In this document: piece by piece, positions 36,997 through 62,014 of the stretch
Layout: each line of letters starts with the position of its first letter
Position numbering within the stretch: position 1 is the stretch's first letter
IMG/VR virus record: IMGVR_UViG_3300018079_000002
Location: 3,768-67,767 of that record
Reading direction: 5' to 3' (one strand)
DNA: 64,000 nt
Source: a virus
The notes under the pieces: generated by a model
What the model was told of the DNA's origin: nothing
Database searches by the model: none
The model's input: only the letters and a program-made list of their open reading frames with translations
Position numbers and translations under genes: made by a program

Positions 36997-37578
36997 TTAA
37001 ACCTTCTTCCTCCGGGTAGGCCATTGGTTGAATACTCGGCCCAGGCAGGAGACGTTGAAGATGCATTGTGTGTGCCAGAATTGGGGTTCAAAGTCTTCGC
37101 AAATGACGTTCAGCGTGCAATTCGTCCAAAGGCTACCAACCAGTTCGGCGGAAACCACCGGCTTGCCGATCTTGTTGGCCAGCTTGATGATGTAGCCATC
37201 AAAGTATTTCGCCGTTGCCTCGTCCGCCATCTTGTCCAGGGTTTTATCCCAATCCTTGCGGGCAGCGACGAAGTAAGGCTGGTCACTGCCACTGCGTTGC
37301 ATTGCATACTTGTCAGTGCCTTCAAAGAATCGCCAGGCAAACTGGTTCAGCTCCATTGCGGCGATGTAGGCGTTACGGCCTTTATAGGTGGGGCCATAAC
37401 TCGCCGGGTAAGGAGCGACTTTGTTTAGGTCCAGGTTGTTCTGCGCCAGCTTGGCAGCAATTTCGTCCACCTGTGCGCGGACGTGCTGGCGGAAACGGGC
37501 ACGGTATTCAAGCCTCGGTGCAGCCAAGGCCGTCCGGAGGGTTTCGCTGACTTGTTCGAGTTTCTTTATTGCGCTCAT
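36997..37578 (-). CDS. Conserved phage early protein (leaderless)
   Basis: 193 aa; YIIKLANKIG...QCIFNVSCLGRVFNQWPTR; ATG 7 nt after sigma28-type -10. Confidence 0.75.
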   Translation of the reverse strand: MSAIKKLEQVSETLRTALAAPRLEYRARFRQHVRAQVDEIAAKLAQNNLDLNKVAPYPASYGPTYKGRNAYIAAMELNQFAWRFFEGTDKYAMQRSGSDQPYFVAARKDWDKTLDKMADEATAKYFDGYIIKLANKIGKPVVSAELVGSLWTNCTLNVICEDFEPQFWHTQCIFNVSCLGRVFNQWPTRRKKV

Positions 37579-37585
37579 ACTATTG

Positions 37586-37612
37586 TTATCGGTTGTTCGT
37601 CGTTAAACTTTA
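37586..37612 (-). promoter_or_regulatory. sigma28/FliA-type promoter
   Basis: TAAAGTTT-N11-ACCGATAA. Confidence 0.85.
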
Positions 37613-37906
37613 GGCCGTAAATCCTCCCAGCCGTGCCAGCTTGCCCAGGAAGGCCATGCCATTGGCCGATTCGCTGGACCACAAGTCCCAGAGGCAATAC
37701 AGGGCTTCTTCGCGGGTTTTGGGCTCCAGGTTCTCCACGTTCAGGGAGAACCGGTCAATGCCGTGGGTGTCAGTGGTCCGGCGGCAATCCACCTTGTATT
37801 TCGTGCCACGGAATTTAACCTGCTTGCCGTGCATCGCCAGCAGCGCAGCCTGGATGTCCATGGTCTCGCCGGTTTCGTTCGGGTATATCGTTCTTGTTGC
37901 ACTCAT
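37610..37906 (-). CDS. Hypothetical early protein (leaderless)
   Basis: 98 aa from MSATRT; stop TAA is the -35 TAAA of the next promoter. Confidence 0.7.
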   Translation of the reverse strand: MSATRTIYPNETGETMDIQAALLAMHGKQVKFRGTKYKVDCRRTTDTHGIDRFSLNVENLEPKTREEALYCLWDLWSSESANGMAFLGKLARLGGFTA

Positions 37907-37913
37907 GGTAATG

Positions 37914-37940
37914 GTATCGGTTAGCGGCGAACAAACTTTA
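37914..37940 (-). promoter_or_regulatory. sigma28/FliA-type promoter
   Basis: TAAAGTTT-N11-ACCGATAC. Confidence 0.85.
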
Positions 37941-38111
37941 GGCCGGGTTAAAGATGTGCTCCTGACGGCGAACAATCACACGGTCCAGCCGTTCGATTGC
38001 GGCCTGGGTTTCGGCCACCCGGTTCGCCAGCACCGAATCCCGGTGGTCCAGGGCTTCCAGGGCGTCCACGGCTTCCACTAAGGCTTTACGAATTTCGGTA
38101 ATCGTTTTCAT
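37938..38111 (-). CDS. Small coiled-coil protein
   Basis: 57 aa from MKTITEI. Confidence 0.6.
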   Translation of the reverse strand: MKTITEIRKALVEAVDALEALDHRDSVLANRVAETQAAIERLDRVIVRRQEHIFNPA

Positions 38112-38113
38112 GA

Positions 38114-38221
38114 TTACAGCCTCGCGAAGCAGATCACACACCACACAATTCCGTAAGCAATGGTTCCGGCCAGCTTCAGTGCTGTGCTCGCCTCTTCAAT
38201 CTTTTCGACTATTGTCGTCAT
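38114..38221 (-). CDS. Small single-TM membrane peptide (35 aa, leaderless)
   Basis: MTTIVEKIEEASTALKLAGTIAYGIVWCVICFARL; ATG 7 nt after -10. Confidence 0.6.
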   Translation of the reverse strand: MTTIVEKIEEASTALKLAGTIAYGIVWCVICFARL

Positions 38222-38228
38222 ATTCTTA

Positions 38229-38255
38229 GTATCGGTTGTTTTCGTTTTTACTTTA
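38229..38255 (-). promoter_or_regulatory. sigma28/FliA-type promoter
   Basis: TAAAGTAA-N11-ACCGATAC. Confidence 0.8.
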
Positions 38256-38513
38256 GGCGTTCGGGAAGGTGATTTTGACCCACCAGTGCGAATAATTCGC
38301 CGTTGAGGCACCGCCGGAGAAAGCCTTGTTGACTTCGCCCTTGCCCACCACCACCGCACCCGGCAGCGCAGCAACAACGCCAGCAGCGTATTGTTCTGCG
38401 TCCATGCCGTGGCGATAAAAGAAACCACGGCGCAAGGTGAAGACGCCTTCTTTGTGGGACACGGTGTCCGCCAGCCCCAGCTCCCGGATTTGTTTGACTG
38501 TCATTTTCATCAT
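38253..38513 (-). CDS. Hypothetical early protein (leaderless)
   Basis: 86 aa; FTLRRGFFYRHGMD. Confidence 0.7.
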   Translation of the reverse strand: MMKMTVKQIRELGLADTVSHKEGVFTLRRGFFYRHGMDAEQYAAGVVAALPGAVVVGKGEVNKAFSGGASTANYSHWWVKITFPNA

Positions 38514-38520
38514 ACCAATA

Positions 38521-38547
38521 CTATCGGCGAAAAGGCGAAAGACCTTA
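38521..38547 (-). promoter_or_regulatory. sigma28/FliA-type promoter
   Basis: TAAGGTCT-N11-GCCGATAG. Confidence 0.75.
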
Positions 38548-38587
38548 AGCCTAAATGACGAATAACCGTCCTTGGACCCTGAAACTG

Positions 38588-38616
38588 CGTAAGTCCCACA
38601 TCCATAGGGACTTACG
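38588..38616. repeat. Perfect 10-bp inverted repeat
   Basis: CGTAAGTCCC-acatccata-GGGACTTACG in non-coding DNA. Confidence 0.8.
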
Positions 38617-38736
38617 TAAAAACCCTCTAAAACAGCCTAGGCTGCGTCGAGGCTCCTAGGTGTATAATGGGGCAAAAACCGGCTCCGGCTGGCCTAGGGG
38701 CGAGCCTGGAGGGTGAAACCGGCCTGATTTTGTGGC

Positions 38737-40951: not shown

Positions 40952-41158
40952 TTAAGCTTGGACCATACTGCGGGTGATAAACTCCGTCTCCAGCCGAATC
41001 GTCTCCCGGTGCGCCTTGGCGCATTCGGGACAGATCGTATGGGAAACGGCCACACCCACAAGTTGCTGCGGGTCGCAGCGCAAGAACTTGCCGGACAAGA
41101 TGTCCTGTTTCTTGCTGCACCACGAGCAGACCAACGTGAACTGTTTCTCTGTTCTCAT
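40952..41158 (-). CDS. Small zinc-binding protein
   Basis: VCSWC...SHTICPEC. Confidence 0.65.
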   Translation of the reverse strand: MRTEKQFTLVCSWCSKKQDILSGKFLRCDPQQLVGVAVSHTICPECAKAHRETIRLETEFITRSMVQA

Positions 41159-41219
41159 CAAATGGACCCATCGGCTGGACCACCGCAAACCTTAAACAAT
41201 ATTTTGCGCTCATGGCCGG

Positions 41220-59612: not shown

Positions 59613-59771
59613 TTATACACTTTTGAACCTTTCGAGCTCCCGTGTGGCGATATCCCAGCCACTTAGCCAACCCTGTGCGCCGTCCGAGCCATCCGGGTAG
59701 GGGCACTCGGTGCGGTCCACCCCTTGCATGGCGTCCTCATACCCCTCCTGGGCAAACGGGTCACTGATCAC
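59613..59771 (-). CDS. Ribosome modulation factor (RMF)-like small protein
   Basis: GTG start overlapping upstream stop; AQEGYEDAMQGVDRTECPYPDGSDGAQGWLSGW matches the RMF G(Y/F)..G..G....CPY.....WL.GW pattern. Confidence 0.6.
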   Translation of the reverse strand: MISDPFAQEGYEDAMQGVDRTECPYPDGSDGAQGWLSGWDIATRELERFKSV

Positions 59772-59965
59772 AGCAGCCACTCCCGCAGGCGCGTCTCGGC
59801 TTCCTGCTCGTTGACCCAGCCTTGTAAGGGAGTTGCGCTGCGCACCCGTGCCCACTCCAGTGCCCATTCGTTTCCCATCTGGAGCTGAATGCTTTTACGT
59901 GCCGAGTCACCGGCCAGGAATTGAGCCAGTGCCTTAATGAACAAACCTTTTTCTTGTGTGGTCAT
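59768..59965 (-). CDS. Hypothetical protein
   Basis: 65 aa from MTTQEK. Confidence 0.55.
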   Translation of the reverse strand: MTTQEKGLFIKALAQFLAGDSARKSIQLQMGNEWALEWARVRSATPLQGWVNEQEAETRLREWLL

Positions 59966-61949: not shown

Positions 61950-61976
61950 CTATCGGCCAAACTCGGAAAAACTTTA
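61950..61976 (-). promoter_or_regulatory. sigma28/FliA-type promoter
   Basis: TAAAGTTT-N11-GCCGATAG. Confidence 0.85.
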
Positions 61977-61985
61977 ATCCTGTGC

Positions 61986-62014
61986 ATCCTCGCTGGTCCA
62001 TGTAAAAAAGGCAA
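61986..62014 (-). promoter_or_regulatory. Putative sigma70-type promoter in tandem with the sigma28 site
   Basis: TTGCCT-TTTTTAC..N17-GAGGAT. Confidence 0.5.

Follow-up and report, generated by a model that had tools for sequence, protein, structure and literature searches.

In a phage of freshwater sediment, four copies of a two-box, promoter-like sequence stand in tandem, each at a fixed distance from the start codon of a small gene, and the question raised by this locus is which transcription machinery would read them and where the transcripts would begin. The window analyzed is a stretch of 64,000 nucleotides (bases 3768-67767) of the IMG/VR virus record IMGVR_UViG_3300018079_000002, which is 69,987 bp long, has direct terminal repeats and is rated complete; all genes of the phage are carried by the minus strand, and the GC content is 55%. 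The four sites are, very probably, promoters, and both their assignment to the sigma-28 class (FliA/SigD/WhiG) and a leaderless geometry, in which the transcript would begin at or next to the start codon, are well supported by the sequence.

Promoter-Like Sites Fused to Start Codons

The four sites lie within 1 kb on the minus strand, as a preliminary description of this DNA had stated, and recur once per 290 to 330 bp with the common layout TAA(A/G)GTnn-N11-(G/A)CCGATAn, 7 nt, ATG. P1 (38547-38521, minus strand, as are all the sites that follow) reads TAAGGTCT-N11-GCCGATAG, then TATTGGT-ATG, and is situated in a true intergenic region; P2 (38255-38229) reads TAAAGTAA-N11-ACCGATAC, then TAAGAAT-ATG; P3 (37940-37914) reads TAAAGTTT-N11-ACCGATAC, then CATTACC-ATG; and P4 (37612-37586) reads TAAAGTTT-N11-ACCGATAA, then CAATAGT-ATG. 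At all four the spacer is exactly 11 nt, the gap between the -10 octamer and the ATG is exactly 7 nt, the latter as had been claimed, and a pyrimidine directly precedes the ATG. The description had also noted that in three of the sites the TAA of the -35 box doubles as the stop of the upstream gene; at P2, P3 and P4 it is indeed the in-frame stop of an open reading frame (ORF) of 86, 57 and 98 aa, respectively. The pattern TAARGT-N14-CCGATA has five matches in the window and the same five in the whole 69,987-bp genome, on the coding strand only, and none in 100 dinucleotide-preserving shuffles; in an unbiased dyad count it is the most repeated hexamer dyad of the genome.

When the motif search was extended beyond the array, as had been proposed, a fifth exact site was found, TAAAGTTT-N11-GCCGATAG (61976-61950), which like P4 agrees with the sigma-28 consensus at 15 of 16 positions; its leader, about 45 nt long, contains GGAG. 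A sixth, TAAGGTTT-N11-GCCGATGG (41194-41168), is located 81 nt past the primase stop, with an ATG 9 nt later, and a weak, degenerate seventh candidate, TAAAGTTC-N12-GACGATGG (54855-54828), occupies the gap after the ribonucleotide reductase gene. The long leader of the fifth site shows that the motif can do without a neighboring ATG and is not a translation signal. Scans for sigma-70 promoters and for terminators gave matches no more numerous than in shuffles.

Within the array the repeated unit is 49 nt long, with 69 to 71% identity, and reaches about 12 nt into three of the ORFs. The first four codons are alike after three of the promoters, namely ATGAGCGCAATA (37578-37567), ATGAGTGCAACA (37906-37895) and ATGACGACAATA (38221-38210), all on the minus strand. 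Another short element, TTG(C/G)CTTTTT(T)AC, has four intergenic copies on the coding strand (minus strand, at 62014, 54878, 51292 and 36520), two of which precede sigma-28-type boxes by 10 to 25 nt.

Resemblance to Sigma-28 Promoters and Leaderless Geometry

The Escherichia coli sigma-28 consensus is TAAAGTTT-n11-GCCGATAA (PMC2859248), and the sites of the phage agree with this consensus at 12 to 15 of the 16 positions and with the exact spacer, so that the match to the sigma-28 consensus reported in the preliminary description stands. The -35 octamer is identical to TAAAGTTT at 61976, 37940 and 37612, and agrees with it at seven of the eight positions at 41194 and at six at 38255 and 38547; the -10 octamer agrees with GCCGATAA at six to seven of the eight positions, with CCGATA in five sites, CCGATG in the sixth and CCGAT invariant. 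The spacer is 11 nt in all six sites and 12 nt in the weak seventh. In common with sigma-28 promoters, the sites have two octamers, an 11-nt spacer and an invariant CGA core, a C precedes TAAAG at three of five phage sites, and the start of transcription is expected about 6 to 8 nt past the -10 octamer. What sets them apart is their place: they are found on a phage, in tandem, fused to start codons and overlapping stop codons, and not in a flagellar regulon.

In the E. coli aer promoter the transcript begins 6 bp past the -10 octamer (PMC2859248), to be compared with the 7-nt gap of the array sites (7 to 9 nt between octamer and ATG at five sites), which agrees with the earlier proposal that the ATG falls at the expected start site. 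If the first transcribed base were the sixth, seventh or eighth after the octamer, the 7-nt gap would leave a leader of 0 to 2 nt, and the pyrimidine before the ATG fits initiation at the A of the ATG. For Deinococcus-Thermus (PMC12340547) and mycobacteria (PMC4633059), two papers describe a -10 element fixed a few nt before the start codon, with transcription from the AUG. The phage sites share with these leaderless cases a promoter element fixed a few nt before the start codon, but the latter involve a housekeeping-type -10 element on chromosomes, whereas the former are of an alternative-sigma type with a -35 box and are carried by a phage. Literature searches on the use of GCCGATAA/FliA promoters by phages and on leaderless FliA promoters returned no precedent; two matches were dismissed, one being a primer and the other an unrelated predicted promoter. 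The arrangement in this phage would combine features of known kinds, namely sigma-28 promoters, the use of alternative host sigma factors by phages and leaderless expression.

Genome Setting and Relatives

The phage is a lytic YuA/Ab18-like siphophage without a recognizable sigma factor or an RNA polymerase of its own. Its kinship with the YuA/Ab18/PaMx11-like siphophages is seen in the primase, DNA polymerase, class II ribonucleotide reductase, helicase, terminase, portal and tail genes, with best protein identities of 54-59%, and its gene order is collinear with that of Ab18 and YuA. In the direction of transcription, a helicase module is followed by nucleotide metabolism, the polymerase, the primase, a block of small genes, and the terminase and structural genes. 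The promoter array opens the small-gene block; it stands some 3 kb downstream of the primase, between the replication and packaging modules. The genes of the array had been described as early, which finds no support in this position; the other sites of the motif, after the primase and, weakly, after the reductase, are located where YuA has phage-specific promoters that depend on phage factors.

Transcription of YuA involves sigma-70, host sigma-54 and nine phage-specific promoters, as related in a preprint (Ceyssens 2008 via bioRxiv 10.1101/2023.10.13.562163). YuA and the present phage belong to the same family and are collinear, in both a repeated two-box motif follows the reductase, follows the primase and recurs inside the accessory block, and YuA is known to use an alternative host sigma; the YuA motif, however, is CTTTACTT-N-CACTATAC, which is sigma-70-like and is associated with leaders and Shine-Dalgarno sites. 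The YuA-type 28-bp motif CTTTACTTCTTCGG...CACTATAC was not what was found here: the motif of the present phage differs, although its other sites occupy similar genome positions. Conversely, the sigma-28-type motif is absent from Simon and Epa5 (whole records), from parts of Ab18, from 50 kb of YuA, from 21 IMG/VR family loci and from five further family records searched whole, four of them complete.

One relative does carry it. The genome designated G002 is a complete 69.6-kb relative with a GC content of 64%, whose primase and reductase are 49.5% and 57% identical to those of the present phage and which has only the replication module in common with it. It has four sigma-28-type sites and, in a profile search, no sigma gene; the sites (L161-L164; 61529-67619, plus strand) are preceded by AAAAACC(T/C)C tracts and stand at the head of a divergently transcribed small-gene arm, three of them with GGAGCAAACC ribosome sites and one leaderless. 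No protein is confined to these two phages. In the comparison of cassette content across related phages that had been suggested, the array block has no homologues in 25 family loci nor in G002. Likewise, no close relatives of the array region were found with megablast and tblastn against the phage collection, or with the 193-aa protein encoded after P4 against IMG/VR.

Which RNA Polymerase Holoenzyme Reads the Sites

The preliminary description had recognized no sigma factor gene, and this is borne out over the complete genome, in which six-frame searches with five profile models (PF04542, PF04545, PF08281, TIGR02479 and TIGR02937, covering Sigma70 regions 2, 4 and 4_2, FliA/WhiG and general sigma-70) gave no sigma domain at lenient E-values of up to 1 to 10, the controls being detected. 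The large proteins of the genome also leave no place for an RNA polymerase encoded by the phage, so that the host polymerase must act. In the reading that we favor, host RNA polymerase carrying a host flagellar-type (FliA/SigD/WhiG-class) sigma would bind each site, and the transcript would begin with the A of the ATG or no more than 2 nt away, so that each small accessory gene would receive its own leaderless mRNA. The units are packed so closely that a gene ends with the TAA in the -35 box of the following unit, and the terminator-like hairpins found upstream of P1 would shield the array from read-through. The sequences, their spacing and enrichment, the lack of a recognizable sigma factor and the return of the layout in other phages are observed; promoter activity, the identity of the sigma factor, the start site and the timing of expression are what we infer from sequence, and that a host FliA-type sigma is the reader appears to us an evenly balanced proposition.

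In favor of host FliA are the conservation of its specificity across bacterial phyla, together with the near-perfect match of the sites, the presence of four such sites in G002, likewise without a sigma, and the family precedent of YuA, which depends on host sigma-54 besides sigma-70. Five of the six bacterial genomes that have the closest relatives of the UBact gene of the phage encode FliA above the curated cut-off, these bacteria being candidate hosts at most. Each of the UBact-relative genomes, and each of 61 genomes from a single phylum (bacterial genomes of 3 to 9 Mb), contains the motif in 0-5 copies, at or near the count of the reversed-pattern control, and its density in the phage is hundreds of times higher. 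The idea that the motif is a general promoter of the host phylum was rejected for the sampled groups on the basis of these counts.

Several points weigh against a host flagellar sigma. No RNA runs containing this DNA are listed, just two freshwater-sediment DNA runs that may be its source. FliA is usually in short supply and sequestered by an anti-sigma factor, so that it would be a strange sigma for a phage to rely on. The phage-specific promoters of YuA, at equivalent genome positions, are inactive without phage factors, and some unrecognized factor of the present phage could likewise read the sites. Some other phages that bear the motif encode sigma genes, which are of the RpoD or ECF (extracytoplasmic function) type and not of the FliA type. 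Some of the contigs with the motif are low in GC and have A/C-rich leaders without Shine-Dalgarno sequences, and these may point to hosts without flagella. Finally, nine other genomes of the family have no such sites.

A phage-encoded reader is the alternative to be taken most seriously. The sites would then be real promoters, with host RNA polymerase redirected by an unrecognized phage protein, either a divergent sigma or a sigma-appropriating factor made early, and the likeness to the FliA consensus would reflect the specificity of that factor and not the use of host FliA. The 28-bp repeats of YuA speak for it, which occur behind the reductase and primase genes and within the accessory block and are annotated as needing a phage cofactor; they are start sites by ONT-cappable-seq, yet inactive in a promoter trap, and the sites of the present phage are at the corresponding places. 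Three other motif-rich phage genomes encode sigma proteins, and many early-region proteins of the present phage are of unknown function. This explanation is nevertheless only a tentative one, since the five sigma models disclosed no sigma-like domain in any frame, the present phage and G002, both of which have the motif, have no common protein that is absent from the motif-less relatives, and the sigma proteins of the other motif phages are unlike one another (RpoD-like, ECF-like) and do not form one family. In addition, chance convergence would hardly produce agreement at 15 of 16 positions together with the exact spacer.

It has also been considered that the repeats are not promoters at all but intercistronic signals on a long transcript, serving mRNA processing to the ATG or re-initiation, or else sites for a regulatory protein (an operator). 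The fixed 33-nt junction from stop to start, which recurs in unrelated phages, would suit such a role, as would the extension of the repeat by about 12 nt into three ORFs. We regard it as improbable: the sites have the two-box structure and the spacer of a known promoter class, at other sites in this phage and in G002 the motif is followed by leaders of 28 to 46 nt, and A-tracts resembling UP elements precede it in G002 and in other contigs. Moreover, P1 stands in true intergenic DNA behind terminator-like hairpins, and no Rfam family was matched anywhere in the window.

Absence of Shine-Dalgarno Sequences and the Host

The preliminary description had stressed that the four ATGs of the array have no Shine-Dalgarno sequence. 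None is present there, but this is not specific to the array, a Shine-Dalgarno core being found upstream of 14% of 56 confident genes and at 16% of control positions inside genes. The corresponding figures are 78% versus 31% in YuA and 96% versus 18% in Ab18. The leaders in this phage are A/C-rich, and its translation is, as far as can be read from its leaders, Shine-Dalgarno-independent throughout the genome. The genome-wide absence argues against a host of the Pseudomonas/E. coli type and for a Shine-Dalgarno-poor lineage; an E. coli-type host is unlikely.

The only other pointers to the host come from a discoidin protein and from UBact. The nearest clusters of the secreted discoidin protein of the phage are from Verrucomicrobiota, and the UBact query reached metagenome-assembled genomes of Nitrospirota, Armatimonadota and Planctomycetota and not one phylum; the FliA of the assembled genome with the closest UBact is nearest to Thermodesulfobacteriota Atlas clusters. 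A repeat protein of the phage gave no pointer to a host.

A 55-aa ORF of the early region (59613-59780, minus strand) matches the Pfam family RMF (ribosome modulation factor) with 31.1 bits against a cut-off of 27.9 and retains the GY...CPY...W..GW pattern. RMF blocks the anti-Shine-Dalgarno region, and if it acts there the presence of such an ORF deserves attention in a phage whose genes have no Shine-Dalgarno sites; alternatively, the ORF could encode a CrpP-like small protein of mobile elements.

Recurrence in Other Phages and Implications

Two scans of IMG/VR seeded with the motif showed that arrays of it are found in unrelated phage contigs, with 6, 3, 8, 9 and 14 exact copies in five records versus 0 to 1 for the reversed control. 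In an unrelated 31-kb fragment (G003), the stop codon lies inside the -35 box at eight of nine sites and the ATG 7 to 9 nt past CCGATA, again at eight of nine; two further contigs (L228 and L249) have the same stop-in-box, leaderless layout. The form TAAAGT-N14-CCGATA-N8-ATG was recovered from IMG/VR at 96 distinct sites; 75% of these have a pyrimidine directly before the ATG (background 49%) and 51% have a C directly before TAAAGT (background 21%), and codon periodicity, with purine-rich first positions, begins at that ATG. Since the layout recurs in IMG/VR phages, the packed leaderless unit is a recurring design and not a quirk of this genome. In other phages, genes behind such promoters have A-rich starts. 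A 169-kb IMG/VR contig with a GC content of 34% (L173) carries TAAAGTTAGATT-N-CTCCGATA ten times within 14 kb, the copies being followed by strong GGAGG ribosome sites; this large low-GC phage presents the same promoter class with ordinary leaders.

A broader proposal can be put forward only with considerable doubt, namely that unrelated phages possess an undescribed module made of flagellar-sigma promoters and strings of leaderless small ORFs, each preceding gene ending with the TAA of a -35 box, served by host FliA only and by no phage sigma. If such a module exists, accessory genes would be expressed according to whether the host is motile, possibly in phages that use flagella as their route of entry, and these genes would no longer depend on Shine-Dalgarno sequences for their translation. 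For the present phage, the reading of the sites by a host flagellar sigma would mean that the programme of a lytic phage is partly wired to an alternative sigma factor that acts in motile cells only, a form of host-state sensing for which the only comparable case known in this phage family is the use of sigma-54 by YuA. The packed stop-in-box leaderless unit may be a general, overlooked route to the expression of small accessory genes in phages; it would offer gene-finding programs a criterion for placing start codons in phages without ribosome-binding sites, and could supply compact parts for synthetic operons, of about 35 bp from stop to start.

The sensing of host motility by the phage and the capture of genes by recombination, both of which had been suggested for this locus, are conjectures. 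The facts that bear on them are the lack of homologues of the block in relatives, the distant homologues of the 193-aa protein and the reach of the repeat into three ORFs; this last feature could just as well result from selection acting on the 5' end of leaderless mRNAs. In phage T4, early promoter cassettes consist of promoter-early stem-loops (PeSL) that flank small mobile ORFs, with sigma-70 promoters, leaders and ribosome sites. The array resembles these cassettes in that strong promoters are arranged in series, each for one small and poorly conserved accessory ORF, in a hypervariable region, and differs from them in that its units are not separated by stem-loops.

Genes and Structures Next to the Sites

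All the genes that follow the sites are on the minus strand. P1 is followed by an 86-aa ORF (38253..38513) that has no family match and a GC content at third codon positions of 0.69, and which ends with the TAA in the -35 box of P2. P2 is followed by a 35-aa ORF (38114..38221), which starts 7 nt past the -10 octamer and has a hydrophobic C-terminus, and to which a 57-aa ORF (37938..38111) is coupled; the latter starts 2 nt past the stop of the former, has no promoter of its own and ends with the TAA of P3. After P3 comes a 98-aa ORF (37610..37906) without relatives in the phage collection, ending with the TAA of P4, and after P4 a 193-aa ORF (36997..37578). The product of the latter is the only array protein to which a family could be assigned (phrog_4687, function unknown), and it has distant homologues in phages of Salmonella, Dickeya, Klebsiella, Erythrobacter and Agrobacterium. 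Outside the array, the fifth site precedes a 164-aa gene (61902-61408), and the sixth is followed, 9 nt past its -10 octamer, by the ATG of a 68-aa ORF (40952..41158) with a zinc-ribbon-like CxxC...CxxC pattern.

Upstream of P1, a structured non-coding stretch (38588..38724, minus strand) has two terminator-like hairpins, each with a U run, followed by a 10-bp hairpin; it folds with -68.7 kcal/mol (z-score -2.6) and belongs to a non-coding region of 220 nt. Transcription from the preceding gene probably stops at these hairpins, and with upstream read-through halted the array would need promoters of its own. Four copies of CCTAGG are clustered in about 100 nt of the non-coding DNA upstream of P1 (38736-38640, minus strand), partly inside the terminator-like hairpins.

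Two other large non-coding regions, 64230-64003, which extends beyond the end of the window, and 26330-25810, have in common a repeat of about 80 nt, 85% identical, and a 31-nt repeat; both also contain the repeat in inverted orientation, forming long palindromes. They head the replication and packaging modules, and their positions match those of the two active sigma-70 promoters of YuA.

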